This document shows, piece after piece, positions 3,602-61,989 of a stretch of 64,000 nucleotides of DNA (the stretch's first letter is position 1; each line of letters starts with the position of its first letter). The translations under genes were made by a program, and so were the position numbers. This DNA is from Candidatus Doudnabacteria bacterium. Lineage in GTDB: Bacteria > Patescibacteriota > Doudnabacteria > UBA920. The notes under the pieces are model-generated. The model was not told the DNA's origin and did not search any database. It was given only the letters and a program-made list of their open reading frames with translations. The stretch is taken from assembly GCA_963768175.1 (NCBI GenBank), contig CAVYGQ010000001.1:840717-904716 (forward strand), given 5' to 3'.

Positions 3602-3612
3602 AAATAAGTAAT

Positions 3613-3666
3613 GTAGCGCGCCGATTTATCGGCAACTTGAGACAGCCCATAAATGGGCATGCTACG
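3613..3666. repeat. Compound palindromic intergenic repeat (copy 1 of 2; second copy at 55585-55637)
   Basis: GTAGCGCGCCGATTTATCGGCA...AGCCCATAAATGGGCA(T/C)GCTAC. Two inner palindromes, GCCGATTTATCGGC and GCCCATAAATGGGC, sit inside a GTAGCG/CGCTAC outer stem. Both copies carry identical 22-nt and 16-nt blocks. Confidence 0.8.
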
Positions 3667-7141: not shown

Positions 7142-8601
7142 AAATTGTTAAAGGTAATGCTGGCTAAATCGTTGAAATTTATGGTTTTCTCGAGTTTTTT
7201 TGCGGGCGGGATATATTTGGACGAGATATAGTCGTAAATATCGGCGGCGCCGGTTTTAAAGAAGTCGCCATATTTCATACTCACCGCCGCTTCAAGATAC
7301 TTTGGACTTAAAGGCCCGTCACAAAATATATCATGCGCGTATAAAGCCTTAAGCTGTCCGTCAAAGCGCCTGAAAAAAAGCGCCATACCGGCAACCAGCC
7401 CGGAGGTGTCAATGTTTTTAATAAGCGGGATTTCTTCCATAAAGGCGGAATGTTCAAGCGTTTTTAGCCATGCATTTTTAAACAGGCTTAAATAAATTGC
7501 GGACCCGTAGCCGGTTAGCGGACGCACGCCGGAGTAAAAATTTAACATTGAAAAAATCGAAAACAGGCTCGGGTAAATTTCTTTTTCCGCTAGCTTCTCC
7601 ATTATAGAACCCTTGTCCATATGGATTTTAAGATGTTCAAATCTGCTGTCGGCGGGAATCAGATATTCTCCTTGAAGGTACATGCGTAAAGAACGAGGCT
7701 GCCCGGGGTACTTTCTCCAGAAAAAGTGGGTGCCCTTTCCTTCTCTTTCCCGCCAGGTGATTATAATTCCTCGAAAGTTTTCCAGTATTTGATCCCGGAA
7801 AGGCTTATCAAAATAAGCGGCGGTTATAAAATTGTCTTCTTTTAACAGTTCAAGCAGACATTGGGTAGTAAGTTCTTCCTGGGTTATATAGAGCAAGTCC
7901 GGCAAAGTGGGGCGGGAGGCCTCGGGAAACAACAGTGGCCAGGTTTCTTTCACAATGACGGTAATTTGGTCGGCGTAGTCTTTGCATCTGTCAAAATTGA
8001 TTGATGAAATAAAGGTGTTAAAATCTTGTAAGAACTTTTGTTCTCCTTTAGTGAATTCATGCCATTGGTGGCTGATTTTAAGTCTGGCGACAAAATCAAA
8101 ATCTCTTTTTGTAATATAATAAGAGCAATGTTCCCGTTCGGCTACGCTAAAAAGGGGAACGTGCTTTCCATGCAGACAAAAGCCGCTTTTCCCGAAATAA
8201 TTATTGGGGGGCACATCGCCGCTGGAGACGACGATGGTGGCGTCCGCTTTTTCCTTTTGGAAAAATTTATTGACGCTGCTTATAACGTTGGCAGACAATA
8301 AAAACGGGTGGTTTAGTATCTGGTGATGGTCGGCAATATTGAAAGCAAGGGAATTTGCGAAGTTAATTTTTAATTTTTCTTTTGCATTGCCGCCGAACAA
8401 CCCTTCAAATTTACGGGTGATTTTATTTTTTAGCAGCTCCTGCCGTTTAAGGTGTAGAGCCGGAGTTTTAAAATTATATAGCCCGTCCGAAAACTCCCTG
8501 ATGCTTAATGGCATTTCAAAATATTCCCGGTAAAGCGGCGCATAACGGGTAATTTGGGAGATTATTTGGTCGCGCTCTTTTAAAATTTTAGCTATTTCCA
8601 T
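7138..8601 (-). CDS. Hypothetical protein of 487 aa with no recognised domain
   Basis: A long uninterrupted ORF, coupled to the ATP-grasp gene by a 4-nt overlap. Confidence 0.5.
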   Translation of the reverse strand: MEIAKILKERDQIISQITRYAPLYREYFEMPLSIREFSDGLYNFKTPALHLKRQELLKNKITRKFEGLFGGNAKEKLKINFANSLAFNIADHHQILNHPFLLSANVISSVNKFFQKEKADATIVVSSGDVPPNNYFGKSGFCLHGKHVPLFSVAEREHCSYYITKRDFDFVARLKISHQWHEFTKGEQKFLQDFNTFISSINFDRCKDYADQITVIVKETWPLLFPEASRPTLPDLLYITQEELTTQCLLELLKEDNFITAAYFDKPFRDQILENFRGIIITWREREGKGTHFFWRKYPGQPRSLRMYLQGEYLIPADSRFEHLKIHMDKGSIMEKLAEKEIYPSLFSIFSMLNFYSGVRPLTGYGSAIYLSLFKNAWLKTLEHSAFMEEIPLIKNIDTSGLVAGMALFFRRFDGQLKALYAHDIFCDGPLSPKYLEAAVSMKYGDFFKTGAADIYDYISSKYIPPAKKLEKTINFNDLASITFNNL

Positions 8602-9967: not shown

Positions 9968-10552
9968 ATGAAAGCGGTACTGTTTTTGGCCATTTGTCTC
10001 ACCATCCCCGCTTCGGCCCAGGACTGGCAGACGCGGGACAGCCTGCACGTGCAGGCGGACGTCAGCAAAAATTGGTTCGTCTCCGGCTGGTCGGTGACCA
10101 ACCTGCGGACCGAAACCCCCAACAACACCAACCTGTTCGCAGGCGCAGGCTACCGCGGCAAAAACTGGTGGCTGGAGGCCATAGTACAGCACCAGTGGAA
10201 CACTAAGGCTAACCAGTGGATGCTGGACTTCCGGTTCAACAAGCAGACCGAACGGTGGCGCTTGTATGCCGAGGTCTCGCCTTTTCTGATCAAGAAGGCC
10301 TTCTACGAGTACGTTATTGTAGAACGGCGGACTTGGAAAGGCTTCTCGTTCGGCGCGGAGACCGAGAACACGCACCAGATTGGGCCGGACATGATCGCAA
10401 TAGGCCCTAGGGTTAGTCGCAAGCTCGGCCGGTTTGCTGGCTTTGATGCATCGGCCGCTATTGCGGTTCGGCTTAGCCCTGTCGGTGGGCATACTGAACC
10501 GCGGTTGTCCCTGACGTTCAACCGCCGGCTTTATTTGAGAGACCGCAAGTAG
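9968..10552 (+). CDS. Secreted protein with a signal peptide, possibly beta-barrel-like; GC-rich
   Basis: N-terminus MKAVLFLAICLTIPASAQD, followed by alternating hydrophobic/polar beta-like segments rich in W, Y and R. An SD (aagggg) is present. GC is about 60% against about 42% for the host. Confidence 0.5.
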   Translation: MKAVLFLAICLTIPASAQDWQTRDSLHVQADVSKNWFVSGWSVTNLRTETPNNTNLFAGAGYRGKNWWLEAIVQHQWNTKANQWMLDFRFNKQTERWRLYAEVSPFLIKKAFYEYVIVERRTWKGFSFGAETENTHQIGPDMIAIGPRVSRKLGRFAGFDASAAIAVRLSPVGGHTEPRLSLTFNRRLYLRDRK

Positions 10553-10622
10553 CGCGCGGTCTCTCTTTTTTATTTGTTTTTATGCTATAATAAGCAGTAT
10601 ATTATTAAAACAAAAAATTACT

Positions 10623-11357
10623 ATGCAAGATAAGTTTGGCGGAAAAGAACCAAAGTATTACGATATTTTTACTGGTTTGTTTGTGGCAATATTGCTGATT
10701 TCAGAAATTACCTCTACAAAAATTGTGTCTTTGGGGTTTATCCAAACAGCAGGCGCCGCGGTGCTGTTCCCTATCTCTTACATTTTTAGCGATATTTTAA
10801 CCGAAGTTTACGGCTACGCCAGAGCCAGGCGCGTCATGTGGATCGGCTTTGCGTCTTTGGTATTGCTTTCAGCAATCTTAATTATTGTCCAGTATCTGCC
10901 GCCGGCGCCCTCCTGGCACAACCAGGCCGCTTACGACGTGATTTTGGGTGTTGTGCCCAGAATTTCCTTTGCCAGCGTGATAGCTTATTGGGCCGGCGGT
11001 TTTGCCAACGATTTAGTCTTGGCCAAAATGAAGCTTTTGACCAAGGGCAAATATTTGTGGACGCGCACCGTGGGCTCCACCGTGGTTGGCCAGGCCGTGG
11101 ACACTTTTTTGTTCCTTAGCATCGCGTTTTATGGTACCTTGCCCAACGCGGTTATTTTACAAATTATCTTCAGCTTTTATTTGTTTAAGTGCGGTTATGA
11201 AGTCGTAGCCACCCCGATTACTTATTTTGTGGTCAATAAATTAAAAAAGGCCGAAGGCCTGGATGTGTTTGATTACCATACCAATTTCAACCCTTTCAAG
11301 TTCAAGGTTGAAAATTCGGTAGACCAAGGGGCATCCTTGGACCCGGAACAATCTTAG
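10623..11357 (+). CDS. yhhQ: Queuosine precursor transporter (YhhQ/DUF165 family)
   Basis: A multi-TM protein carrying the SDILTEVYGYARARRV motif typical of DUF165/Vut transporters. Confidence 0.7.
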   Translation: MQDKFGGKEPKYYDIFTGLFVAILLISEITSTKIVSLGFIQTAGAAVLFPISYIFSDILTEVYGYARARRVMWIGFASLVLLSAILIIVQYLPPAPSWHNQAAYDVILGVVPRISFASVIAYWAGGFANDLVLAKMKLLTKGKYLWTRTVGSTVVGQAVDTFLFLSIAFYGTLPNAVILQIIFSFYLFKCGYEVVATPITYFVVNKLKKAEGLDVFDYHTNFNPFKFKVENSVDQGASLDPEQS

Positions 11358-11375
11358 ACCAAGGATGCCCCTTGG
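11324..11375. terminator. Perfect 17-bp inverted repeat (CCAAGGGGCATCCTTGG / CCAAGGATGCCCCTTGG) between convergent genes
   Basis: Seen directly in the sequence. A related copy lies at 57743-57781 after rnhB. Confidence 0.7.
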
Positions 11376-11377
11376 TA

Positions 11378-12154
11378 CTATTGGTGTTTCAAAAACGGTT
11401 TTAATATTGGCGCGTATAAATCTTTTTTCGGCGGAATAACCAATTTGTGATATAAATCCTTTTTGGTAAACTTAACAAATTTCGCCCCTCTTAGCACCAC
11501 CACCGGCGTTTGCTCGCCGCCTTCGCCCATTATCAGCGCTCCCAAGTCCGCCAGCGTGTCCACCAAATTGCGCTGGGTGTATTTTAATTTGCGTTTAAAA
11601 ATATCTTTTTGTCCGCGGTAATCAAACAGTGGCTTTAACCCCCAAAAGCCGATGCTTACCCCTTGCGTTCCCCATCTTAGCGGCGTGGTGCGGCTGTCCA
11701 CGGCCACGGCCGCCAGTTTTTTTGTGCCAAATTTTGTTTGGTATCTTTTGACAATTTGTTTAAGTAATAAATTAACATTCTTCGGCCAAAGAATAAAATA
11801 ACCATTGCCGTTGCTTTCATCTATGCCGGCCGAAGGTATAAGCGTGTAGTCTTTAATGGTCAAAATAATTTCCGAATCGCCAATCATGTAAGCCGGCAAG
11901 CTAAAATCGGCTTCTTTTTTTACAAGCTGGTGTTTTTGGTTGTAGCGTGCCGATTTATCCGCCGTCGCTGAAGCTTTGGCGGACAAGTCGGCCTTCTCGA
12001 TTTTCACGCATCTGCCCTGATGAATCGCCAAAATCTTGGAAGCAATCAACAAAACATCGCCTTCTTTAAGCTTAGGCAGGCGTTTGTCCAGCTCTTGCAA
12101 AATGTCGTCCTTTGGCGGCAGGAACTTGCGGGTTTTTATGGGAATGAATTGCAT
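11378..12154 (-). CDS. CofE-like (F420-0:gamma-glutamyl ligase family) protein
   Basis: IPSAGIDESN and LLIASKILAIHQG regions resemble the F420_ligase domain. The family assignment is tentative. Confidence 0.45.
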   Translation of the reverse strand: MQFIPIKTRKFLPPKDDILQELDKRLPKLKEGDVLLIASKILAIHQGRCVKIEKADLSAKASATADKSARYNQKHQLVKKEADFSLPAYMIGDSEIILTIKDYTLIPSAGIDESNGNGYFILWPKNVNLLLKQIVKRYQTKFGTKKLAAVAVDSRTTPLRWGTQGVSIGFWGLKPLFDYRGQKDIFKRKLKYTQRNLVDTLADLGALIMGEGGEQTPVVVLRGAKFVKFTKKDLYHKLVIPPKKDLYAPILKPFLKHQ

Positions 12155-22459: not shown

Positions 22460-23924
22460 ACTGCCAAACGTCCGCGGCCGGTTTGCTGGCCGGGTTTTCT
22501 TTGAAGTAGATTTTACGATTCTTTAGGGGCGTCCAGTCAGACGGCGTGGAAATAAAGTCGCCGAGATAAGGTTTTGCAATATCCAGCACAAAATCGTGCG
22601 GCAAGTCGTCAGGCAGGCAAATACCTTTTTTCGGATTTTCAAACATCCATAGTACGGCGGCAATTACGCCTAGCGCGACCTGTAAAGTGGTGGCATTTTG
22701 GCCAGGTGCCAGCCTCCGGGCTTCCTGTATGCTTAAATCGCTCCCTGTCCACCAAGAATTATACCGATGCCCCATCAGTAGCGCGCCTAAAATGTCCGCC
22801 CCGGAAGTAATCTCATCTTCCAAAATTCTTATCTTGGACTGCATTTCGTAATTCCTGCCGCGAAGTTCGCATAAAGAAGATAGTGTTTCGTGGCACGGCA
22901 TATACGCGTAATGCACTGTCGGGCGGTAAACTGCCCTATCTCCATCCCAAACTGTTAACCTGTCGGATAACCCAAATGCTTCGCCGTGGCGAATGACCAT
23001 GCCCACAATTTCTTCGTTGGGAATCCATGACCTTACCCAGGTATTAATTCCCATTTGGGAGAGCATAATCTGATTTTTTGGCCCGTAAGGCGGAATATTA
23101 GCCAAGTCCGGTAGCCTTTGTTCGTGTGTGCCCCAACCCATCTCGGCCGGCGCGGTTCCTTCTTCCCGCAAGCCTTCCACGCTCCAGGTTCCTACAAATT
23201 CATCAACTTCTTTTGGGCGATTGGTAATTTGCGTGTCGCGCTCGCTGCAGTGGATTACTTTGATTCCCAATTTTTGTCCGAGCAAATTGAATTTGAGGTT
23301 TTTAATATAATTTTCCAGTTCTTCCCTGTCTTTGCCAGCCACTTTTTTATCTGCGATTGTTTTATTGCCGATATCAATCAATCCTTGTTTGACAAAATGG
23401 GAGATCAAACCGGGGTTTGCGCCATGGTCCACGACTGCCGTAGTGGCGTCTTTCCAGTCTTTGGACATGTCGTGCAGTTTCATTTGGCGCCAGTAAAGCG
23501 ATTTTTCAAATGGGCTGTCAGTAAATAATCCCTTAATGGAATCCCAGATTTCAACCGAAGTATTTACATACAAAACATTATGGTCGTGGCACCAGCCGAT
23601 AATATCATTAGCACCAATATTCCATGCCAAATCTATAATCAGGCCGCCCTTGTCTGTGTATTTGGCCAACTCCGGGCCTAGGTTTTCCGGCGTAATCCTG
23701 TTGCGTACAAATTTGATGCCCTTGTCCGTGAATTTTTTTAAAGCCGCTGCTTTGTCTTCAAAATCCATTACCGTGACGTTTTTTGGGTCAACCTCAATTT
23801 TTTCCAGCAGAATCGGCAGGGTGCACTGCGACACCGCGCCATAACCGATAATCAAAATTTTGCGGTCAAACTTTTTTTTTCCGCCGGAGGCGGATCCGCC
23901 TTTAGCGGACATACGTTTTTCCAT
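22434..23924 (-). CDS. hss: Homospermidine synthase / saccharopine-dehydrogenase-family enzyme
   Basis: NAD-binding N-terminus (ILIIGYGAVSQCTLPILLEK) and 496 aa. An in-frame AKGGSASGG cassette sits near the N-terminus. Confidence 0.55.
   Translation of the reverse strand: MEKRMSAKGGSASGGKKKFDRKILIIGYGAVSQCTLPILLEKIEVDPKNVTVMDFEDKAAALKKFTDKGIKFVRNRITPENLGPELAKYTDKGGLIIDLAWNIGANDIIGWCHDHNVLYVNTSVEIWDSIKGLFTDSPFEKSLYWRQMKLHDMSKDWKDATTAVVDHGANPGLISHFVKQGLIDIGNKTIADKKVAGKDREELENYIKNLKFNLLGQKLGIKVIHCSERDTQITNRPKEVDEFVGTWSVEGLREEGTAPAEMGWGTHEQRLPDLANIPPYGPKNQIMLSQMGINTWVRSWIPNEEIVGMVIRHGEAFGLSDRLTVWDGDRAVYRPTVHYAYMPCHETLSSLCELRGRNYEMQSKIRILEDEITSGADILGALLMGHRYNSWWTGSDLSIQEARRLAPGQNATTLQVALGVIAAVLWMFENPKKGICLPDDLPHDFVLDIAKPYLGDFISTPSDWTPLKNRKIYFKENPASKPAADVWQFENFRFIP
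23880..23903. repeat. 24-nt palindromic cassette AAAGGCGGATCCGCCTCCGGCGGA (in minus orientation) in frame in hss
   Basis: Identical 24-mers occur at 44773-44796 (murA) and 53990-54013 (murF). Each encodes KGGSASGG. Confidence 0.85.
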
Positions 23925-24247: not shown

Positions 24248-24359
24248 CTTCGCTAAAGCTACGAAGTGCGAGCAACTTAGTTGGTATGCTCATTTTAATA
24301 GTTAACTGTAAATTTTAGAAGCGAAGAAGTGCCCTACGTAGCCTTGGCGAAGTAGGGCA
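24248..24359. repeat. Inverted repeat CTTCTTCGC/GCGAAGAAG plus hairpin GCCCTAC-GTAGCCTTGGCGAAG-TAGGGC (conserved-loop REP-like motif)
   Basis: Loop motif CGTAGC(C/T)TT(G/A)GCGAAG occurs 5 times in the window: at 24248, 24338, 35448, 51493 and 61948. Confidence 0.7.
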
Positions 24360-24388: not shown

Positions 24389-24473
24389 GCCCGGGTGGCG
24401 TAATTGGCAGCCGCGCTTGACTTAAGATCAAGTGCCGAAAGGCGTGCGGGTTCGAGTCCCGCCCTGGGCACCA
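24389..24473 (+). tRNA. tRNA-Leu (anticodon TAA)
   Basis: Anticodon arm CTTGA-CTTAAGA-TCAAG, a long variable arm, CCA encoded. Confidence 0.8.
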
Positions 24474-32440: not shown

Positions 32441-32548
32441 GACGTCATTCCGAGCGCCTGCAATATCGCGCGAGGAATCTCTTATTGGCAGTTCGTTATT
32501 TAAGAGATCCTTCACCCTTCGGATGCACTCGGGGTTCAGGATGACGCC
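32441..32548. repeat. Palindromic element of the GGCGTCATYCTGA...TCAGGATGACGCC family (copy A, intergenic, degenerate left end)
   Basis: It shares the GAGATCCTTCACCCTTCGGATGCACTCGGGGTTCAGGATGACGCC right half with copies at 43990, 54177 and 57344. Confidence 0.8.
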
Positions 32549-32618: not shown

Positions 32619-32705
32619 GCCCAGGTGGTGGAACTGGTATACACGTAGGCTTGAGGTGCTTATGGGAGCAATCCCGTGCGGGTTCGAGTCCCGCCCTGGG
32701 CACCA
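32619..32705 (+). tRNA. tRNA-Leu (anticodon GAG)
   Basis: Anticodon arm TAGGC-TTGAGGT-GCTTA and a long variable arm. The 3' half is identical to that of tRNA-Leu(TAA). Confidence 0.75.
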
Positions 32706-35205: not shown

Positions 35206-35691
35206 TTATTTTTCCTCGTGTATTTTACGTATAACTTCGTCTATATGCTGCACATATCTCGGGCTAGTGTCTAGATGGAAGCTTATTCGGGGAATGACTT
35301 TGGTGGCAAAGTGCTTGTTAACTTCGCCCTGGAGGTCGTAAATGTTTTTTCCCAAAAATGTTAAGATTTTATAGTCCAAAGATAGAGCAGTCTGAGATTT
35401 TTTATCAGCCTGCGACAAACTTTTTTTCCCTCTCCCTTCTTGCCCGCCGTAGCCTTGGCGAAGGCGGGTGGGAGAGGGTGCCCCAAGCCCGTCTTGGGGC
35501 GGGTGAGGGTCTGGGTTAAAAATAGAAATCCAAATTTTGGCGTACTTCATATCTTTGCTGGTTTCCACTTTGGTTATGGTCACCAGGCCTTTTTGCCAAT
35601 CCAAAAATTTATGCAAAACCGGCCCCAATTCGTGCTGGATTAAGGAGTTTACCTTAGCTATGCGGTTGGTGTCTTTTTTTACCGGCTTCAT
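35206..35691 (-). CDS. rbfA: Ribosome-binding factor A with an in-frame insertion of about 40 aa
   Basis: RIAKVNSLIQHELGPVL and the C-terminal KH-like part match RbfA. The middle segment NPDPHPPQDGLGAPSPTRLRQGYGGQEGRGKK is encoded by a GC-rich hairpin element. Confidence 0.75.
   Translation of the reverse strand: MKPVKKDTNRIAKVNSLIQHELGPVLHKFLDWQKGLVTITKVETSKDMKYAKIWISIFNPDPHPPQDGLGAPSPTRLRQGYGGQEGRGKKSLSQADKKSQTALSLDYKILTFLGKNIYDLQGEVNKHFATKVIPRISFHLDTSPRYVQHIDEVIRKIHEEK
35427..35516. repeat. REP-like hairpin element in frame in rbfA (conserved loop GTAGCCTTGGCGAAG)
   Basis: cccgcc-GTAGCCTTGGCGAAG-gcggg, the flanking cctctccc/gggagagg stem and a second hairpin gccccaag...cttggggc. Confidence 0.7.
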
Positions 35692-43455: not shown

Positions 43456-43989
43456 ATCTAAGCTATTGTAGCACTAGTTATGGCTTGCGTTCAAATGATA
43501 AATTGTATCATTATCCTTTATCTTTTATCCTTGACAACCTTCGCTTGGTAAAGGATAATGGATAAAAGATTAAAGATAAATTTATTATGTCCAAAAAGCA
43601 CAAAAGAAGCGATTACCAAATACCCCAGCAAGCCGGTATTTCCCATGCCGCGGAATACCGCATTATTAAGTTTGATTTGGTAAAAGTGGTAATTTTAAAC
43701 CTTGTTTATTTAGCGGTTATTTTGTCGTTGTATTTTGGCAACCAGCATACGCATTTTTTGGATAACTGGTTTGCGAAACTTCTCCATTTCTAGTTTATCT
43801 TTGAACAACGGGCATCATTGGTCTTAGAAATATTTCAATCCAATGGTGCCCGTTGTTACCTTTTGTTATAGACGCCCCATAATGGGCGGGTTTTGTCATA
43901 TATGATATAAAGTGGATAATTTTGGTTGACCAAAGGGCAAAAATTTGCTAAAATTGTAATACATATATCACATACGATAGTTTCCCTTT

Positions 43990-44075
43990 GGCGTCATCCT
44001 GAGCGTAGCGAAGGATCTCATTAAAGAAAGAGATTCTTCACCCTTCGGATGCTACTTCAGGTTCAGAATGACGCC
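43990..44075. repeat. Palindromic element GGCGTCATCCTGAGC...TTCAGAATGACGCC (copy B, intergenic, upstream of murA)
   Basis: Terminal inverted repeats plus an internal palindrome, GAAGGATCTC..GAGATTCTTC. Confidence 0.8.
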
Positions 44076-44094: not shown

Positions 44095-45648
44095 ATGCAA
44101 AACCTTATAAAGGATCAGCAGAAAATCGGCCAGTTTATAGCCGAAGTCCGTGAGCTTAAAGGCTTTACCCAAAGCCAGTTTGCCAAAAGCTTAAAAACCA
44201 GCCAGTCAGCCGTAGCCAGGATGGAAAGCGGCCAGCAAAACTTAACTACAGAGATGCTGGCTAAGATTAGCGCAGTTTTGAACCATGAAATTATTACGTT
44301 GGCCGACAAGTCGGTAAATTTTAAAATAGAAGGCGGGCGGAAACTTTCGGGAAGGGTCGCGGTTAATACTTCCAAGAATGCCGCGGTGGCGCTGTTGTGC
44401 GCTTCTTTGCTTAATGAAGGTAAAACTATTTTTAAGAATGTGCCTAAAATAGAGGAAGTCTACCGGGTAATTGAAGTTTTGGTCAGTCTTGGCGTCTCGG
44501 TAAAATGGCAGGGCGCGGATGTGGAAATTTTGCCGGGCAAAAAAATTACCATAAATAAAATAGACAAAGAAGCCGCGGTTAAAACCAGAAGCGTTCTTAT
44601 GCTGCTTGGGCCTTTGGCTCATATTCTTCCCGCTTTTAACCTGCCTTTGGCCGGCGGCTGCAAACTGGGCGAACGGACCGTGAGGCCGCATTTGTTTGCT
44701 TTGGAAAAGCTTGGAGTTAAAATTCAGACCCATCATGACCATTACGCCGTAAGCTCGGCTAAAGCTCCCGCCAAAGGCGGATCCGCCTCCGGCGGAAAAA
44801 CCGCGGAGGTAGTGCTTTACGAAATGGGTGACACAGTGACGGAAAACACGCTTATGGCCGCGGCAAAAATAAACGGCGTGACCACCATCAAGCTGGCCTC
44901 TTCCAATTACATGGTGCAGGATTTATGTCATTTTTTGCAAAGTTTGGGCGTAAAAATTGAAGGCGTGGGTACCTCCACCTTAAAAGTGCATGGCAAACCG
45001 CACATTAACCAGCGTGTGGTCTTTTATTTAAGCGAAGACCCCATAGAAGCCATGCTGTTTTTGTCTTTGGCTGTCACCACAAATTCTTCCATAACCGTTG
45101 AGCGCTGCCCCATAGACTTTTTGGAGCTGGAACTGTTGAAATTGGAAAAGATGGGGTTTAAGTACCGGATTATTAAGCGTTATAAAAGCCATAACGGTAT
45201 TACCAATTTGGCAGATATTAAGACTTTCCCGTCTAAATTAATCGCGCTGGAAGAAAAAATCCACCCGTTGACGTCCTCGGCCGGAATTAATATAGATAAC
45301 CTGCCGTTTTTTGTGCCCATTGCCACCCAGGCCAAAGGCACCACGCTGATTCACGACTGGGTTTACGAAAATCGCGCTATTTACTATTTGGAATTAAATA
45401 AGCTGCGGGCCAATATAATTTTGGCCGACGCCCACCGCGTTTACATAGACGGCCCGACCGAACTTAAAGCAGGCGAAGTCATTTGTCCCCCTGCCCTGCG
45501 CCCGGCCGCGATAATTCTAATTGCGATGTTAGCCGCCAAAGGCACCTCTATTCTCCGCAACGTTTATTCCATAAACCGCGGCTATGAGAATTTGGTGCAG
45601 CGATTACAGAAGCTCGGAGCCAAGATCGAAATGATACATGGCATGTAA
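44095..45648 (+). CDS. murA: UDP-N-acetylglucosamine 1-carboxyvinyltransferase fused to an N-terminal XRE-type HTH domain
   Basis: Residues 1-65 form an HTH_3 domain (IGQFIAEVRELKGFTQSQFAKSLKTSQSAVARMESGQQNL). The MurA core follows (KLSGRVAVNTSKNAA...). An in-frame AKGGSASGG cassette is also present. Confidence 0.85.
   Translation: MQNLIKDQQKIGQFIAEVRELKGFTQSQFAKSLKTSQSAVARMESGQQNLTTEMLAKISAVLNHEIITLADKSVNFKIEGGRKLSGRVAVNTSKNAAVALLCASLLNEGKTIFKNVPKIEEVYRVIEVLVSLGVSVKWQGADVEILPGKKITINKIDKEAAVKTRSVLMLLGPLAHILPAFNLPLAGGCKLGERTVRPHLFALEKLGVKIQTHHDHYAVSSAKAPAKGGSASGGKTAEVVLYEMGDTVTENTLMAAAKINGVTTIKLASSNYMVQDLCHFLQSLGVKIEGVGTSTLKVHGKPHINQRVVFYLSEDPIEAMLFLSLAVTTNSSITVERCPIDFLELELLKLEKMGFKYRIIKRYKSHNGITNLADIKTFPSKLIALEEKIHPLTSSAGINIDNLPFFVPIATQAKGTTLIHDWVYENRAIYYLELNKLRANIILADAHRVYIDGPTELKAGEVICPPALRPAAIILIAMLAAKGTSILRNVYSINRGYENLVQRLQKLGAKIEMIHGM
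44773..44796. repeat. 24-nt palindromic cassette AAAGGCGGATCCGCCTCCGGCGGA in frame in murA
   Basis: Identical to the copies in hss and murF. Confidence 0.85.
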
Positions 45649-45713: not shown

Positions 45714-48209
45714 ATGGCGGAAACAAACAACAATTTGGGTTTATCATCAGCCGAAGCCGCTAGCAGATTAAGGCAGTACGGCTATAACGAAATTGCGGAA
45801 AGCAAAAGGCTATCCGGGCTTTTGGCTTTTTTGTTAAGGTTCCGCAATCCGCTGGTGCTGATTTTGGTCTTTGCGGCTACGATATCAGCTGTAACCGGGG
45901 ATCCCGTCAGTGCGCTGATTATCATCAGTATTGTACTGCTGTCCGTTATCTTAGATTTTTTTAATACCTACAAATCCCAAAAAGCCGCGGAAGAGCTGAT
46001 AGAAAAAGTGGAAATTACAGCCGAGGTATTGAGAGGCGGCATAGTGACTCCCCTGCCGCTGCGCTTGATTGTGCCCGGAGACGTGGTGGAACTTGAGGCC
46101 GGAGACGTAATTCCCGCAGACGGCAAAATTTTAAGCGCCAAAGATTTATTTTTGAACGAATCTTCGCTAACCGGCGAATCTTTTCCCGCGGAAAAGCAGG
46201 AAGGCTTGCCTATTTTTTTGGGAACCAACGTGGTTACCGGCACTGGCCGGATGCTGGTGGAAGTTACGGGTAAAAAAACCAAGTTCAGCAAAATCGCGGA
46301 AAGTCTGGAAGCGCCGGAAAGGCCTACGGATTTTGACCGCAGCATAAAAGATTTTAGCTACTTAATTATGAAGATAACTTTTGTCTTGGTTATCTTTATT
46401 TTTTTGGTTAACGCCATACTCAAAGGCAGCACTTATATTTTGGAGTTGTTTTTGTTTGCCGCGGCCTTGGCCGTGGGCTTGACGCCGGAGCTTTTGCCCA
46501 TGATTATTACGCTTAATTTATCCAAGGGCTCTTTGGCCATGTCCAAGCACGGCGTAATTGTAAAAAAACTATCGGCCATCCAAAACTTTGGCGCTATGGA
46601 TGTATTGTGCACCGATAAAACCGGCACGTTGACGGAAGACAGGATTGAACTGGTCAAGTACGTGGACGCCGAGGGCAAGCCGGATGAAAACATTTTTAAG
46701 TACGCTTACCTTTCCAGCAGTTTCCGCAGCGGCTTTAAGAATCCGCTGGATGTGGCTGTAAAAAATTTCAAGATGTTTGATATTGGCGGCAAATCCGCCT
46801 TCGCTGAAGCTTCGGCGGATGACTCGCTATCAAATATATTAATGGGAGTCAAAAAAATAGACGAAATCCCCTTTGATTACCGGCGCAAGCGCGATTCCAT
46901 TATCGTGAAAACTTCTCAAGGCTATGAGCTTATTTCCAAAGGCGCGCCTGAAGAAATGTTTGAGACCTGCAGTTTTTATAGCCAGATGGGTAAAAAACTC
47001 ACCCCTACTATAGCCAAAAAATTGGAAAAAGAATATCAGGCTTTAAGTGCCGACGGCTTTAGGGTTTTGGCTGTGGCCTGCAAGACGCTTCCGGAAAAAA
47101 CGGCATACGAAAAAGAAGACGAAAGGGATTTGGTTATATTGGGCTTTATTGCTTTTTTGGATCCGCCCAAAAAGAGCGTGACCGAAACCCTGCGGACTTT
47201 GGAAAATTATGGCATCGCCATAAAAGTTATTACCGGCGATAACGAAATTATTACCAAAAAAATCGCTCAGGAAATTAATTTGCCCGTTTTGGGCAGTTTG
47301 ACCGGGGCAGAGATAGAAAAATTGACCGATCGGCAGCTAGCAATAGATGCGGAGAAAACTACAGTTTTTGCGCGCGTTACGCCGGAACAAAAAAAGCGCA
47401 TTATTTTGGCTTTGCAAAAAAATAAACACGTAGTCGGGTTTATGGGCGATGGTATAAATGACGCGCCGTCGCTTAAGACCGCGGACGTGGGCATTTCGGT
47501 TAACAACGCGGTGGACGTGGCCAAGGAATCGGCCGATTTAATTTTATTGCACAAGAGTTTAAAGGAGCTGGCTTTAGGCGTTATCCAGGGCCGCAAAACT
47601 TTTGCCAATACTTTAAAGTATTTAATGATGGGTTTGAGCTCAAATTTCGGCAATATGTTTTCCATGGCCGGAGCATCCATGTTTTTTCCGTTTTTGCCCA
47701 TGCTGCCGGCCCAGATTTTGCTAAATAATCTGCTGTATGACGGCTCGCAGTTTGTCATTCCGCTGGACAATGTGGATGAGCAGGACATTGCCAGGCCACG
47801 GCAAATGAAGATCCATTTTTTGCGCAGATTTATGGTGGTTTTTGGCATTTTAAGTTCGGTGTTTGATTTTGTGACGTTTTTAGTGTTAACTTTTGTCTTC
47901 CATTATACCAACCACTACTTCCAGACCGGCTGGTTTATTACCTCTTTTGCCACGCAAATTTTAGTGGTATTTGTTATCCGCACCAAGCAGGTGCCGTTTT
48001 TCAAAAGCAAGCCGGCTAAGTCCTTAGTTATTTCCGTGTTTAGTTTTTTGGCTTTAGCCCTGCTTTTGGCCTTAGGCCCGATAAAAAATATCTTCGGCTT
48101 TGCCCCGCTTTCGCTGGCCATGGTTTTAAGCGCTTTCCTTATTACCCTGCTCTATTTAATCTGTATTGAGTTCGCCAAAAGCAAATTTTACCAATATGTT
48201 TCGGAATAA
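45714..48209 (+). CDS. Cation-transporting P-type ATPase (MgtA-like)
   Basis: DKTGTLT, TGDN and GDGINDAPSL motifs, 831 aa. Confidence 0.8.
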   Translation: MAETNNNLGLSSAEAASRLRQYGYNEIAESKRLSGLLAFLLRFRNPLVLILVFAATISAVTGDPVSALIIISIVLLSVILDFFNTYKSQKAAEELIEKVEITAEVLRGGIVTPLPLRLIVPGDVVELEAGDVIPADGKILSAKDLFLNESSLTGESFPAEKQEGLPIFLGTNVVTGTGRMLVEVTGKKTKFSKIAESLEAPERPTDFDRSIKDFSYLIMKITFVLVIFIFLVNAILKGSTYILELFLFAAALAVGLTPELLPMIITLNLSKGSLAMSKHGVIVKKLSAIQNFGAMDVLCTDKTGTLTEDRIELVKYVDAEGKPDENIFKYAYLSSSFRSGFKNPLDVAVKNFKMFDIGGKSAFAEASADDSLSNILMGVKKIDEIPFDYRRKRDSIIVKTSQGYELISKGAPEEMFETCSFYSQMGKKLTPTIAKKLEKEYQALSADGFRVLAVACKTLPEKTAYEKEDERDLVILGFIAFLDPPKKSVTETLRTLENYGIAIKVITGDNEIITKKIAQEINLPVLGSLTGAEIEKLTDRQLAIDAEKTTVFARVTPEQKKRIILALQKNKHVVGFMGDGINDAPSLKTADVGISVNNAVDVAKESADLILLHKSLKELALGVIQGRKTFANTLKYLMMGLSSNFGNMFSMAGASMFFPFLPMLPAQILLNNLLYDGSQFVIPLDNVDEQDIARPRQMKIHFLRRFMVVFGILSSVFDFVTFLVLTFVFHYTNHYFQTGWFITSFATQILVVFVIRTKQVPFFKSKPAKSLVISVFSFLALALLLALGPIKNIFGFAPLSLAMVLSAFLITLLYLICIEFAKSKFYQYVSE

Positions 48210-51485: not shown

Positions 51486-51515
51486 TGCCCTACGTAGCCT
51501 TGGCGAAGTAAGGGC
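51486..51515. repeat. REP-like hairpin GCCCTAC-GTAGCCTTGGCGAAGTA-AGGGC abutting the tRNA-Ala(GGC) 5' end
   Basis: The same loop motif as at 24338 and 35448. Confidence 0.7.
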
Positions 51516-52819: not shown

Positions 52820-54403
52820 ATGGACTTGTTTGTTCCAAAATTTATCCAATACCAATTATACCTGCTCCAGCTGGAAAATTATGAGCTGGGAAGGTATTGG
52901 AAATTGCTTATAAAAAAGGGAGTTTTCCCTAAAAAAAGCCAACCTTTGCGCAAAGAGCTGGTCTGGACCGCTAAAGCTCGGGCGTTAATGCTTATGGCTG
53001 TGGCCCTGCATGGTTTGGTGGTCGTTTTGGTTGGGCTTATGGTTTTAACTTTAAAGCCGGGCATAGATAACTTTTTTACCACAATAATTTTGGCGGTATT
53101 AATTTTGTTGCCGTTTTATTTTGTTTTTTTCAGTCTGGCTTTGTTAATCCTTAAGCCTTTGGACACTCTGGTAAAACAAAGCCTTGTGGCTAAAGCCAAA
53201 ACCAAGCTGGCTGGATTGCCTGATGTCAAGATAATCGGCGTTGCCGGCAGTTACGGCAAAACTACAATGAAGGAAGTGTTGAGGGCAGTGCTAAGTGCTA
53301 AGTTCAAAGTGCTAAGTACGCCGGAGAGCATAAACACGCCGGTGGGGATTGCCAGATGGATTATAAATAAAATAACGGACGAAACCCAAATTCTGATTGT
53401 AGAAATGGGGGAGCATTATGAGAAAGACGTTAAAGAAATTTGCGATATAGCAAAACCCGACATCGCGGTGGTTACCGGCATTAACGAATCCCACTTGGAG
53501 CGGATGAAAAAAATGGATACGGTTATTGCCACAATTTTTGAAATCGTGAGTAACGCCCAGCCCGGCGCGGCTATTGTGCTAAACGGCGATGATCGCAGGG
53601 TTATGGAGAATTATAAAAAATTTGTCTGGCCAGACCATCGGCTGGAATTTTTTACAAAAAATCCCGGCAGTGAAAAGTGTAAAGTGAAAAGTGCAAAGTT
53701 TAACACAGACAAGCTGTGTTGGAATTTAGAGATTGATGATCTTGGCTCGGTAGAACTGGATTTACTTGGGGAATACGCGTTGGGCGACGTTGACGCGGCC
53801 GTGAAAATTGCCAAAAGTTTGGGTATGAGCAATGAGCAAATTATCGCGGGGATCAAAAATATCAAGCCCGTGGAGCACAGGCTCCAGCCGATAAAGTCTG
53901 CCACGAATGTTTTGGTAATAGACGACAGTTACAACGGCAATTCCGACGGAGTAGTGGAAGCCATAAAAGTTTTGTCGCGCTTTTCCGCCAAAGGCGGATC
54001 CGCCTCCGGCGGAGAAGGCCGCCGGAAGATTTATATCACTCCCGGGCTGGTGGAAATAGGCAAAAGTTCCGCCGATATTCATCGCAGTATTGGCAAACAG
54101 CTGGCGGACGTTGCGGATGTGGTTATTTTGATAAAAAATAGCGCGACGGGGTTTATTGAAGAGGGAATCCTCTTAGGGCGTCATTCTGACCCTGAGCGGA
54201 GCGAAGGGGAAGAATCTCAAACTAAGGATAAAGAGATCCTTCGTCCCTCGGATGCACTCGGGGCTCAGGATGACGCCGCTGGTAAGAGACCAAGAATTAT
54301 CTGGTTTAATTCCGCCTTGGAAGCGTACGCGGGGCTAAAAGACATTTTAAAACCCGGGGATGTAATTTTGTTTCAGAACGATTGGGGAGACCAGTATTTG
54401 TAA
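52820..54403 (+). CDS. murF: UDP-N-acetylmuramoyl-tripeptide--D-alanyl-D-alanine ligase with an N-terminal TM extension and two in-frame repeat insertions
   Basis: Mur ligase ATP-binding motif GVAGSYGKTTMKE. Two in-frame inserts are present: the KGGSASGG cassette at 53990 and a palindromic element of about 100 nt at 54177-54277. Confidence 0.85.
   Translation: MDLFVPKFIQYQLYLLQLENYELGRYWKLLIKKGVFPKKSQPLRKELVWTAKARALMLMAVALHGLVVVLVGLMVLTLKPGIDNFFTTIILAVLILLPFYFVFFSLALLILKPLDTLVKQSLVAKAKTKLAGLPDVKIIGVAGSYGKTTMKEVLRAVLSAKFKVLSTPESINTPVGIARWIINKITDETQILIVEMGEHYEKDVKEICDIAKPDIAVVTGINESHLERMKKMDTVIATIFEIVSNAQPGAAIVLNGDDRRVMENYKKFVWPDHRLEFFTKNPGSEKCKVKSAKFNTDKLCWNLEIDDLGSVELDLLGEYALGDVDAAVKIAKSLGMSNEQIIAGIKNIKPVEHRLQPIKSATNVLVIDDSYNGNSDGVVEAIKVLSRFSAKGGSASGGEGRRKIYITPGLVEIGKSSADIHRSIGKQLADVADVVILIKNSATGFIEEGILLGRHSDPERSEGEESQTKDKEILRPSDALGAQDDAAGKRPRIIWFNSALEAYAGLKDILKPGDVILFQNDWGDQYL
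53990..54013. repeat. 24-nt palindromic cassette AAAGGCGGATCCGCCTCCGGCGGA in frame in murF
   Basis: Identical to the copies in hss and murA. Confidence 0.85.
54177..54277. repeat. Palindromic element GGCGTCATTCTGA...CTCAGGATGACGCC (copy C), inserted in frame near the murF C-terminus
   Basis: It encodes GRHSDPERSEGEESQTKDKEILRPSDALGAQDDAA and keeps the reading frame. Confidence 0.85.
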
Positions 54404-54442: not shown

Positions 54443-55588
54443 ATGGGGACAATCGGAAAAATTTTTAATAAGATAGTATCACCAAAAATTAACTATCAAC
54501 CGCTTATAGAAGTGAGGATTTTTAAAGATGCCTTGCTGCATAATTTACACGTTTTCCAAGAAAAATATCCGAGCCTTGAGTTTGCCCCAGTGATAAAAAG
54601 CAACGCTTACGGACACGGTATGGTACAGGTGGCAAAAATTTTTGACAGCAAACCCAAAGCTTTTTTTATGGTGGACTCATTTTATGAGGCTTTGGTGTTA
54701 AGGCGCGCCGGAATTAAATCTAAAATTTTAATGCTGGGTTTTAACCGGATTGAGCAATTGATTAACCCCAAATTAAAAAATTGTTCCTCGGCGATTATTG
54801 ATTTCTCCACTTTGCAGGAAGTGGTGGCAAAATTAAAAAAGCCGGCGATCTTTCATCTCAAGATTGATACGGGTATGCACCGGCAGGGACTGTGGGGGGA
54901 AGAAGTAAATAAGGCAATTGCGTTAATCAAGTCTAACCCAAACTTTAATTTGGAGGGCTTATGCAGCCATTTGGCGGATGCCGACGGGGCTGGGCAGGAT
55001 TTTACCAAACAGCAGATTAGACTGTGGAATCAAGTCGTGGAAAAATTCAAACAAAACTTTCCCTCCATTAAATATTTCCATTTAGCCAATACCGCCGGGA
55101 CTTTTTATACCAACGAAATTACGGCCAACGTGGCGCGCATCGGCATCGGGCTGTATGGGTTAAATAATTCACAGTTTGAAAAGTTGGACTTAAAACCGGC
55201 TTTGGAAATGGCCTCTATTGTCACTTCCGTAAAAACTATTCCGGCTGGGGAGAAAATCGGTTACAATATAACTTATGAGGCGCCGAAAGAAACAAAAATC
55301 GCCACCGTACCGGCGGGATTCAACGAAGGCGTGGACCGCAGGCTTTCAAATAAAGGATTTTACCAAATTAAGGGGCAAAACTGTCCTTTGCGGGGCAAGG
55401 TGAGCATGAACATAAGCAGCGTGGAAGTAACCAGTGTCCCTGGAGTTAAAGTGGGGGATGAGGTGGTAATTATAAGCCGAAATCCGAGCGATAAAAATTC
55501 GGTGGAAAATATTGCCAAAATGTGCGACACGGTACATTACGAAATTCTGGTTCATATACCTTCTATATTAAGAAGAATAATAGTGTAG
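54443..55588 (+). CDS. alr: Alanine racemase
   Basis: PLP-lysine motif VIKSNAYGHG, 381 aa. Confidence 0.88.
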   Translation: MGTIGKIFNKIVSPKINYQPLIEVRIFKDALLHNLHVFQEKYPSLEFAPVIKSNAYGHGMVQVAKIFDSKPKAFFMVDSFYEALVLRRAGIKSKILMLGFNRIEQLINPKLKNCSSAIIDFSTLQEVVAKLKKPAIFHLKIDTGMHRQGLWGEEVNKAIALIKSNPNFNLEGLCSHLADADGAGQDFTKQQIRLWNQVVEKFKQNFPSIKYFHLANTAGTFYTNEITANVARIGIGLYGLNNSQFEKLDLKPALEMASIVTSVKTIPAGEKIGYNITYEAPKETKIATVPAGFNEGVDRRLSNKGFYQIKGQNCPLRGKVSMNISSVEVTSVPGVKVGDEVVIISRNPSDKNSVENIAKMCDTVHYEILVHIPSILRRIIV

Positions 55589-55637
55589 CGCGCCGATTTA
55601 TCGGCATCCTAAGATAGCCCATAAATGGGCACGCTAC
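55585..55637. repeat. Compound palindromic intergenic repeat (copy 2 of 2)
   Basis: GTAGCGCGCCGATTTATCGGCA...AGCCCATAAATGGGCACGCTAC. Confidence 0.8.
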
Positions 55638-57010: not shown

Positions 57011-57739
57011 ATGACTTTTAGATACGAAAACCAAAAGTACAAACAAGGCTATAGCCATGTTATCGGCTGTGATGAAGTGGGTAAGGGCAGTTTGGCCGGG
57101 CCGGTGGTCGCGGTGGCAATAATATTGGATTTAAGATGTAAGATTAAAGATTTAAGCGAAGTCAGGGATAGTAAAATGTTGTCTCAAGAACAGAGGGAAA
57201 AACTTCAACCATTGATAAAGCAACATTGCCTGGCTTGGGGGATAGGCGTAGTCGATGAAAAAACTATAGACAAAATAAATATTCACCGCGCAACCTTGGC
57301 CGCGATGAAACTGGCTGTGGGAAATTTGTTGGCCTCTTTCTCCGGCGTCATTCTGAGGCCAAAGTGCTACTCCGAGGCTGAAGAATCTCAAACCGGGAAG
57401 AGATCCTTCGCCCGCACTGATAACTCCAGGGAACGGGCCCAGGATGACGCCGCTAAAGGAGTTTTGGTAGCCATAGACGGCAAGTTTATTATCCCCGATT
57501 TGAATTTGGAACAGGAAGCCGTAGTAGGAGGCGACAATAAAATTCTTTCCGTTGCTGCTGCCTCCATTGTTGCCAAAGTTTACCGCGATGATTTGATGCG
57601 CAAGCTTCATCGTCAATATCCGGTTTACAATTTTGCCCGGCACAAAGGCTACGGCACTTTGTTTCATCGAACAATGATTAAACAAAATGGTCTGTCGCCA
57701 ATACATCGCAGAAGTTTTTGCAAAAACCTATCAATTTAA
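57011..57739 (+). CDS. rnhB: Ribonuclease HII with an in-frame palindromic element insertion
   Basis: DEVGKGSLAGPVVAVA (DEVGRG motif). It is 242 aa against about 200 typical. The insert at 57344-57452 encodes VILRPKCYSEAEESQTGKRSFARTDNSRERAQDDAA. Confidence 0.85.
   Translation: MTFRYENQKYKQGYSHVIGCDEVGKGSLAGPVVAVAIILDLRCKIKDLSEVRDSKMLSQEQREKLQPLIKQHCLAWGIGVVDEKTIDKINIHRATLAAMKLAVGNLLASFSGVILRPKCYSEAEESQTGKRSFARTDNSRERAQDDAAKGVLVAIDGKFIIPDLNLEQEAVVGGDNKILSVAAASIVAKVYRDDLMRKLHRQYPVYNFARHKGYGTLFHRTMIKQNGLSPIHRRSFCKNLSI
57344..57452. repeat. Palindromic element GGCGTCATTCTGA...CCCAGGATGACGCC (copy D), in frame in rnhB
   Basis: Terminal inverted repeats shared with copies A, B and C. Confidence 0.85.
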
Positions 57740-57742
57740 TCC

Positions 57743-57781
57743 ACAAGGGGCATCCTTGTGCTGCACAAGGATGCCCCTTGT
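57743..57781. terminator. Inverted repeat CACAAGGGGCATCCTTGTG / CACAAGGATGCCCCTTGTA 3' of rnhB (related to 11324-11375)
   Basis: Seen directly. Confidence 0.7.
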
Positions 57782-57844: not shown

Positions 57845-57936
<92 letters not shown>

Positions 57937-61936: not shown

Positions 61937-61947
61937 GAGTAGTGAAT

Positions 61948-61971
61948 CCGCCTTCGCTAAAGCTACGGCGG
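61948..61971. repeat. REP-like hairpin CCGCC-TTCGCTAAAGCTAC-GGCGG (loop motif in reverse orientation)
   Basis: The loop is the reverse complement of CGTAGCYTTRGCGAA. Confidence 0.65.
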
Positions 61972-61989
61972 ACAAGTAGGATAAAACAC

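Follow-up and report, generated by a model that had tools for sequence, protein, structure and literature searches.

The window analysed here, a stretch of 64,000 nucleotides (nt) from the Candidatus Doudnabacteria contig CAVYGQ010000001.1 (positions 840,717 to 904,716), contains the gene rnhB for a ribonuclease HII (RNase HII) of 242 residues, in which one loop of the protein is lengthened by an in-frame segment. This locus raises the question of what the segment is, how it came to be kept inside the gene, and what it means for the enzyme. An earlier note on this DNA had described an in-frame element in a loop of an intact RNase HII; our analysis bore out this description and identified the segment as one copy of a dispersed palindromic repeat. 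We consider it probable that a non-autonomous selfish dimer of the CGTC type of repetitive extragenic palindromic (REP) sequence once inserted into a permissive loop and has been carried along since, and that it would be translated as a disordered loop.

The insert of rnhB and its copies in the window

The rnhB product matched the Pfam family RNase_HII (PF01351) with E=3.8e-33. In the alignment with T. maritima RNase HII (3o3g/2etj), query residues 8-111 corresponded to chain residues 4-101 and query residues 150-237 to chain residues 100-185. About 38 query residues were left unmatched, and it is because these are without counterpart in solved structures that the PF01351 match fell into two stretches. 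This structure-based alignment, the check proposed in the earlier note, placed the insert in the loop before the strand carrying D156. The insert extended over 57344-57451 (108 nt, 36 codons) and encoded residues 112-147 with the peptide GVILRPKCYSEAEESQTGKRSFARTDNSRERAQDDA; the start given previously was correct, and the end at 57452, for a length of 109 nt, was one base too long. The peptide was located, as described, between DEVGKG (residues 21-26) and GVLVAIDGKFIIPD, with intact RNase HII sequence on both sides and a continuous frame. Removal of the insert left a protein of 206 amino acids with a loop of 15 residues, which lay within both ranges of the insert-free RNase HII orthologues (204-216 amino acids, loops of 12-19 residues). 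The residues D21, E22, D156 and D175, which by the T. maritima alignment would correspond to D18, E19, D107 and D124 of that enzyme, were all present, in invariant columns of a 50-sequence alignment.

The T. maritima, E. coli and S. aureus enzymes did not contain the segment, so that an occurrence in distant lineages, which had been named as a ground for refutation, was not what the comparison gave. It was also missing from many orthologues of the candidate phyla radiation (CPR) and from the syntenic Doudnabacteria orthologue. The same 242-residue protein was found, identical, in an independent Logan assembly. Repeats can cause misassembly, and this speaks for an assembly artefact; such an artefact, or a decaying rnhB pseudogene, was nevertheless judged extremely unlikely, since the open reading frame (ORF) and the catalytic tetrad are intact, the protein recurs in the independent assembly, four further contigs, from metagenomes of different samples, have the insertion too, and the synteny around rnhB is conserved.

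The 15-nt end motif of the element, GGCGTCATTCTGAGG, occurred 8 times in the window, forming four inverted pairs. The expected number was 0.97 and none of 100 shuffled sequences reached 8, demonstrating that the repetition is beyond chance. The four copies (Table 1) had a common layout, consisting of GGCGTCATYCTGAG, a variable part, GAAGRATCTC, a spacer, GAGATYCTTC, a second variable part and CTCAGRATGACGCC. A solo end near 7950 was discarded as a chance match. Two of the copies were intergenic and two lay in frame within genes, and the site of the Mur-ligase copy was likewise occupied in the orthologue of Candidatus Doudnabacteria palsa_1336.

Unit structure and distribution of the element

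Each element was composed of two units in inverted arrangement. The general unit had a terminal CGTC tag, a 5-base-pair (bp) stem ATYCT/AGRAT, a tandem G.A, a short variable stem, a loop and a 3-nt tail. In the rnhB copy, the left unit consisted of the GG-CGTC tag, the stem ATTCT/AGAAT, the tandem G.A, a second stem GGCC/GGCT, a 15-nt loop and the tail CTC, and the right unit, read on the minus strand, of the GG-CGTC tag, the stem ATCCT/AGGAT, a second stem GCCCG/CGGGC, a 19-nt loop and again the tail CTC. The flanks at 57334-57343 and 57452-57461 prolonged the inverted symmetry. Across 85 units the tag columns were invariant, and the pairs 7-32 (A-U) and 8-31 (U-A) were present in 85/85; both element ends read GG-CGTC-AT. 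The 5-bp stem and tandem G.A were followed by 2-5 covarying bp, the loops were mostly of 6-21 nt, and the tail was CTC or CCC. The tags-outside arrangement of all copies found was imposed by the search pattern.

Covariation showed which pairing had been selected. At the sole variable position of the conserved motifs, the partners within a unit (ATYCT with AGRAT) formed Watson-Crick pairs in 54/54 and 53/54 copies; across the arms, Watson-Crick pairing held in just 11 and 12 of the 54. T.A/C.G heterodimers accounted for 42 of the 54 copies. The second stem covaried as well, with GC in 89, AT in 21 and GT in 6 cases at its first pair, and CG in 49, GC in 39, TA in 9 and TG in 8 at its second. 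A formal count found 89.8% of cells paired when compared to 72.3% in shuffled data (0/500) and 26-49% in slid controls, with a covariation score of 0.42 against 0.15; one of its ten pairs was fixed by the extraction rule, and that pair was tested independently in the 54-copy Y/R comparison. A single long hairpin was therefore rejected as the selected structure, as the Y/R positions pair within units and rarely across the arms. The dimeric element is made up of two inverted unit hairpins.

The wider distribution was examined by an exact-pattern scan over one genome per species, and the matches listed included more than 100 public-genome loci. Among these, copies from Saccharibacteria, Doudnabacteria and other Patescibacteria had the full architecture, copies from Terriglobales/Acidobacteriota and Hymenobacter had the ends and the GAAGGATCT core in common, and copies from Sphingomonas shared the ends alone and were textbook CGTC-1 dimers, CGTC-1 to CGTC-4 being the families of the CGTC-tagged REP superfamily (Di Nocera, De Gregorio, Rocco 2013, BMC Genomics 14:522; PMC3733652). 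The CGTC head, the 5-bp stem and the tandem G.A were conserved across Patescibacteria, Acidobacteriota and Hymenobacter (Bacteroidota). The flanks of the copies were of biased composition, the 12 nt on the left being pyrimidine-rich (C or T at -1 in 50/57 copies) and the 12 nt on the right purine-rich (G or A at +1 in 55/57), which could represent degenerate element ends or a target preference. Neither an autonomous partner nor a phage vector came to light: no unit pair enclosed an ORF in about 0.6 Mb of sampled low-GC loci and the window, and no element matches were obtained in viral contigs. In the literature searched, nothing relevant turned up on elements of this kind in CPR/Patescibacteria or on the motif itself.

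A considerable portion of the copies lay inside genes. Among the sampled loci, 12 of 45 Patescibacteria-type copies (about 27%) were located in long ORFs. The ten in-ORF copies tested with Pfam were in housekeeping genes, encoding TatD, MnmA (twice, at the same site in two genomes), CarA, Lgt, LeuRS, a GT1 glycosyltransferase, YchF, UvrD and an M24 peptidase. Every in-gene copy examined was free of stop codons in the host frame. Family-wide, the number of open frames per copy was 1.47 of 6 when compared with 1.58 in shuffled sequences; there was no excess, which suggests that in-frame copies are survivors of selection, and a design for compatibility with coding was rejected on the same figures. 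Ten of the 12 in-ORF copies had one orientation, too weak a bias for interpretation.

These results also bear on the idea that intron-like or intein-like splicing, or translational bypassing, eliminates the insert ahead of the mature protein, so that the enzyme would not be lengthened. Mobile hairpin elements bypassed by ribosomes occur in yeast mitochondria, and the rnhB element was predicted to form a strong mRNA hairpin (-51.7 kcal/mol, z = -3.2). Removal would, on the other hand, make it needless for in-gene copies to be stop-free and for orthologous copies to vary in length by threes, and 36 residues are far too few for an intein. At gathering thresholds, Rfam gave tRNA matches alone in the window, and nothing below E = 0.76 in 57250-57550; a self-splicing intron or another curated RNA family was rejected for want of a covariance-model match. 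We regard removal of the insert as scarcely credible.

Table 1. Position and context of the rnhB gene, the parts of its element and the four copies in the window
Feature	Position	Strand	Basis or context
rnhB, ORF of 242 residues for RNase HII, hosting the element	57011..57739	+	ORF list, Pfam, PDB matches (3o3g, 2etj, 7uwe), alignment
rnhB codons D21/E22	57071-57076		catalytic
rnhB codon D156	57476-57478		catalytic
rnhB codon D175	57533-57535		catalytic
Left flank, pyrimidine-rich, CTCTTTCTCC	57334..57343	.	inverted repeat, flank composition
Left unit of rnhB copy, T.A type	57344..57389	+	sequence, within-unit covariation
Spacer between units, 10 nt, AAACCGGGAA	57390..57399	.	
Right unit of rnhB copy, C.G type	57400..57451	-	sequence, DNA fold
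Right flank, purine-rich, GCTAAAGGAG	57452..57461	.	inverted repeat, flank composition
Copy 1, intergenic	32441..32548	+	starts 6 nt past pyrD stop codon, upstream of tRNA gene
Copy 2, intergenic	43990..44075	-	opposite polarity, 20 nt upstream of HTH-MurA-like ORF 44095-45648
Copy 3, in frame in Mur-ligase ORF 52820-54403	54177..54277	+	peptide ...RHSDPERSEGEESQTKDKEILRPSDALGAQDDA...
Copy 4, in rnhB, HH (tags-outward) heterodimer of two CGTC-tagged stem-loop units	57344..57451	+	

History of the insertion and the predicted enzyme

The best 120 homologues of the rnhB product were Patescibacteria RNase HII wherever the source was named. Four metagenomic orthologues, 65-72% identical to the query, had the element at an identical codon and matched the query in its orientation and frame; their alr-ddl-rnhB synteny was conserved and their contigs came from different samples. 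All five rnhB copies had the GGCC variant of the second stem (AGCC in one), which was present in 5 of 102 units family-wide, and their lengths of 108, 108, 87, 96 and 123 nt were all multiples of 3. The shared codon and frame, the rare stem variant and the lengths in threes argue for one old insertion since kept in frame. To judge from these sequences, the rnhB insertion is old and lineage-restricted and not a recent private event. In Candidatus Doudnabacteria palsa_1336, where four neighbouring proteins had 64-76% identity to those of the window, the rnhB insertion was absent and the Mur-ligase insertion was present.

The loop that received the element was also occupied by other sequences. 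At least four further insert types were found at this position in other orthologues, namely VIPSECSRVEES...GRDDT, CHCE...RNDK, VIPEFFT... and SANSHELA/...GLHYK. These types were interleaved on a loop-masked neighbour-joining tree, a crude tree that does not resolve the number of events, and the interleaving pointed to the rnhB loop as a hot spot with turnover. The variable parts of the rnhB copies themselves decay and take nested insertions. In locus L005 (1952-2626), a 32-nt perfect palindrome, GTCCCGCGGAGCGGGATCCCGCTCCGCGGGAC, encoding the peptide PRSGIPLRG, was nested in frame in the left-unit loop of the rnhB element. In palsa_1336 (locus L006, RNase HII at 10001-10651), the seemingly insert-free loop SANSHELAHDG was coded by a perfect 20-nt hairpin, GCTAATTCGCACGAATTAGC; this peptide type occurred in about a dozen homologues and may be another mini-palindrome or a footprint. 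Just downstream of palsa_1336 rnhB there was a LAGLIDADG-type ORF (L006, 10784-11788), at a place where the window has an 87-nt tRNA gene (57845-57931).

The consequence for the enzyme was assessed with an AlphaFold2 model built from 50 sequences. The model had a mean predicted local distance difference test (pLDDT) score of 86.7, a predicted template modelling score of 0.83 and a core pLDDT of at least 90. The insert appeared between helix 83-109 and strand 151-156 as a low-confidence coil (block-mean pLDDT 49-62), and the 36 residues are thus predicted to be disordered. In Foldseek searches the target-normalised template modelling score was 0.92 to E. coli RNase HII (7uwe_C) and 0.77 to the T. 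maritima enzyme (3o3g_A). The Pfam match, the invariant columns and the Foldseek results together identified an RNase H2 fold with its D-E-D-D residues. The insert ended 8 residues ahead of D156, on the N-terminal side of the strand that bears this third catalytic carboxylate at its C-terminal end; the N-terminal end of the strand would be distal from the active site.

Such a loop might alternatively be a functional part of RNase HII specific to this lineage, for example an interaction surface, with the likeness to a repeat being secondary. The frame was kept across orthologues merely 65-72% identical to the query, and the amino-acid identity of the insert (72%) was near that of the flanks (69%), as would be expected of a functional loop. 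This alternative was considered very unlikely, as the same sequence was found in intergenic DNA and in unrelated genes, the conservation was seen at the codon level and not at the amino-acid level only, the insert was predicted to be disordered, and close relatives had wholly different inserts or none, the syntenic Doudnabacteria orthologue among them.

The codon-level conservation was observed when the five insert-bearing orthologues were compared at positions with the same amino acid. Identical codons made up 85% in the element (184/217) and 56% in the flanks (736/1318), with all 10 pairs, which are not independent of one another, showing the same direction. The conserved stretches of the rnhB copies coincided exactly with the head and stem-1 motifs of the whole family. 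The Mur-ligase copy was 82% identical in nucleotides between two genomes with proteins 71% identical, and this orthologous copy (82%) and one paralogous copy (87%) were similarly close.

These findings gave weight to a further alternative, in which the hairpins of the element, as DNA or RNA, are functional where they stand, by protein binding or processing, by an effect on mRNA stability or translation, or as a substrate for single-stranded DNA (ssDNA) transposition or gene conversion. In its favour are the synonymous conservation of head and stem 1 in 10/10 orthologue pairs, the nucleotide identity of the Mur-ligase copy exceeding that of its protein, and the sharing of head, 5-bp stem and tandem G.A between Patescibacteria, Acidobacteriota and Hymenobacter. 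Moreover, the two units of an element are opposite in the sense strand yet equally conserved, so that the relevant form would be DNA rather than mRNA. Against it, about 0.6 Mb of sampled loci and the window yielded no associated protein, the variable parts decay and accept nested insertions, and the uneven distribution of CGTC REPs speaks, in the published view, against a general function (PMC3733652). Function of the hairpins in place was therefore taken as a rather unlikely explanation. It is also conceivable, though doubtful, that the CGTC head, the 5-bp stem and the tandem G.A constitute the recognition hairpin of a widely conserved ssDNA machinery that mobilises or homogenises CGTC REPs and RPEs (the palindromic elements of Rickettsia). 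If this were true, such machinery would best be sought in the tiny genomes of Patescibacteria, where about a quarter of the sampled copies lie in housekeeping genes.

We return to the explanation considered probable, a selfish CGTC-type REP dimer carried along in a permissive loop. The palindromic repeat would have entered rnhB in an ancestor of this Patescibacteria lineage, spreading as a non-autonomous element. Selection would remove insertions that break the frame, add a stop codon or hit structured regions, and copies open in the host frame and landing in a surface loop would survive. The rnhB copy would then be transcribed and translated with its gene as a disordered loop of 36 residues, leaving the RNase H2 fold and the active site intact, and the element would do nothing for RNase HII. 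The head and stem motifs would persist via DNA-level causes, such as recognition of the hairpins or homogenisation, and not via the peptide.

Several observations weigh against this explanation. Pure neutrality leaves the synonymous conservation of head and stem unaccounted for. There was no direct sign of mobility: no empty-site polymorphism was found, and 52 of 57 copies had no abutting direct repeat as a target-site duplication, equal to the shuffled control. Neither a transposase nor an ORF flanked by units was present in about 0.6 Mb of sampled low-GC loci and the window, where the neighbours of the four copies were pyrD, a tRNA gene, MurA, the Mur ligase and rnhB. The stem and loop dimensions of CGTC-1 to CGTC-4 were not matched by the element. 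The translation of the insert and its retention in mRNA and protein are predicted from the maintained frame. Finally, a single long hairpin was the thermodynamic optimum for the rnhB copy, and the left unit alone did not adopt the model structure under DNA folding parameters. The long-hairpin optimum does not decide the matter, since any inverted dimer is able to form one and the covariation indicates selection on the units; the right unit alone gave exactly the covariation-supported structure in the DNA fold. The divergent dimensions suggest a distinct variant working like a CGTC REP dimer.

If the same process operates in Patescibacteria (CPR) generally, it would explain part of the variation in protein length and of the low-complexity loops in this group, and annotators and structure predictors would be warned that such loops are derived from repeats. 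The rnhB loop, with at least five insert types beside a catalytic strand, provides a natural experiment in insertional tolerance.

Other small repeats were observed in the window. A 30-nt palindrome, CCGCCAAAGGCGGATCCGCCTCCGGCGGA, at 23881-23912, 44768-44799 and 53985-54016, lay in frame within three different long ORFs, the HTH-MurA-like ORF and the Mur ligase among them, and encoded AKGGSASGG; in the Mur ligase it was a clean 10-codon insertion absent from the Doudnabacteria orthologue, and the peptide was also present in some RNase HII homologues. A small palindromic family, ATCCGCCTTCGCTGAAGCTTCGGCGGAC, was located at 11957-11991, 46793-46827 and 61946-61980, the copy at 46793 being in frame as SAFAEASAD in an ORF of more than 800 codons; the inserts FAKATEGKP and FVKATSDK in RNase HII homologues were related to this family. 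A 57-nt intergenic repeat with two small hairpins occurred at 3609-3665 and 55581-55637 (89% identical), with a partial copy at 11941-11962, and one of its copies was directly upstream of ddl (start 55654). A 28-nt palindromic repeat, TGCCCTACGTAGCCTTGGCGAAGTAGGG, was found at 24330-24357, 35441-35468 and 51486-51513, with two of the three copies adjoining tRNA genes. Related GC-rich hairpins (ACAAGGGGCATCCTTGT...) were present at 57743-57781, 11323-11376 and 43804-43857; as the first of these directly follows the rnhB stop codon, they are probably terminators forming a small family of their own.

Features of the genes near the copies were also recorded. The ORF at 44095-45648 encoded a MurA-like enzyme (EPSP_synthase fold) with an N-terminal HTH_3 DNA-binding domain, an unusual fusion. 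The Mur ligase at 52820-54403 had a hydrophobic N-terminal extension of about 130 residues outside Pfam, which replaced a recognisable Mur ligase N domain and was conserved in the Doudnabacteria orthologue. Two long-arm tRNA genes (24389-24470 and 32619-32702) had identical 31-nt 3' ends, and one of them lay just downstream of the element copy at 32441.

Comparison with known palindromic repeats

Classical MITEs (miniature transposable elements with inverted repeats) come from insertion sequences of the DDE type and generate target-site duplications. Those of bacteria (Correia, ERIC, RUP) show occasional in-frame fusion to ORFs (PMC10969869). The present element resembles them in being short and non-autonomous, with inverted ends and occasional in-frame fusion to ORFs; it differs in that target-site duplications are lacking and that selection acts on hairpins within the units, not on the terminal repeats only. 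The lack of target-site duplications ruled out a classical MITE. REPINs, mobilised by RAYT transposases, reportedly bear the tag GTAG, with REPs on either side of the cognate RAYT gene (Bertels and Rainey 2011; Nunvar et al. 2010). In common with them, the element has inverted doublets of short REP hairpins as one unit without target-site duplications, whereas its tag is CGTC instead of GTAG and no REP-flanked ORF was present in the sampled DNA.

A closer parallel is found in Rickettsia. RPEs, as Ogata et al. 2000 (Science 290:347) are summarised in later papers (PMC10969869, PMC3184786), are palindromic repeats of about 100-150 bp that lie in frame in many housekeeping genes, and for Rickettsia they are reported to be kept in the mRNA and the protein, according to a citation in PMC3733652. 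Both groups are palindromic, belong to hosts with reduced genomes, lie in frame in unrelated housekeeping genes, add an extra peptide and have no known transposase. Insertion at a site compatible with the host fold is another likeness, here judged for rnhB only and from the predicted model, and RPE-4 and RPE-6 are likewise CGTC-tagged. The phylum differs, and probably the sequence family too. Further features seen here are the occupation of one hot-spot loop by several types of element and the conservation at synonymous sites. Colonisation of essential genes in frame by palindromic repeats has hitherto been a curiosity mainly of Rickettsia.

The most extensive likeness was to the CGTC REPs. 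Their stems start with A-T/T-A and are followed by a 3-nt tail, they occur mostly as inverted HH dimers with the tags outside, and some copies are intragenic, often in replication/repair genes, with no dedicated transposase known (PMC3733652). Members of the superfamily include CGTC-1 of Sphingomonas wittichii and RPE-4 and RPE-6 of Rickettsia conorii, and the 2013 survey covered 5 phyla and reported no Patescibacteria families (PMC3733652). The present element agrees with them in the terminal CGTC tag, the first two stem pairs A-T and T-A, the HH dimers, often heterodimers differing at one stem position, and the intragenic copies, often in replication and repair genes; it also has a 3-nt tail, though of another sequence, and no transposase was seen with it in about 0.6 Mb of sampled low-GC loci and the window. 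Published stems have 8-9 uninterrupted bp, with loops of 4-5 nt and the tail CCA (PMC3733652), whereas the element has a 5-bp stem, a tandem G.A and a further 2-5 bp, longer loops and the tail CTC/CCC, and the share of its copies inside genes (about 27%) is high. The link to CGTC REPs brings the superfamily to a new phylum and sharpens the question of how such elements are mobilised or maintained. In principle the phenomenon is already known; new are the lineage, the hot-spot loop by the catalytic strand and the conservation at synonymous sites.

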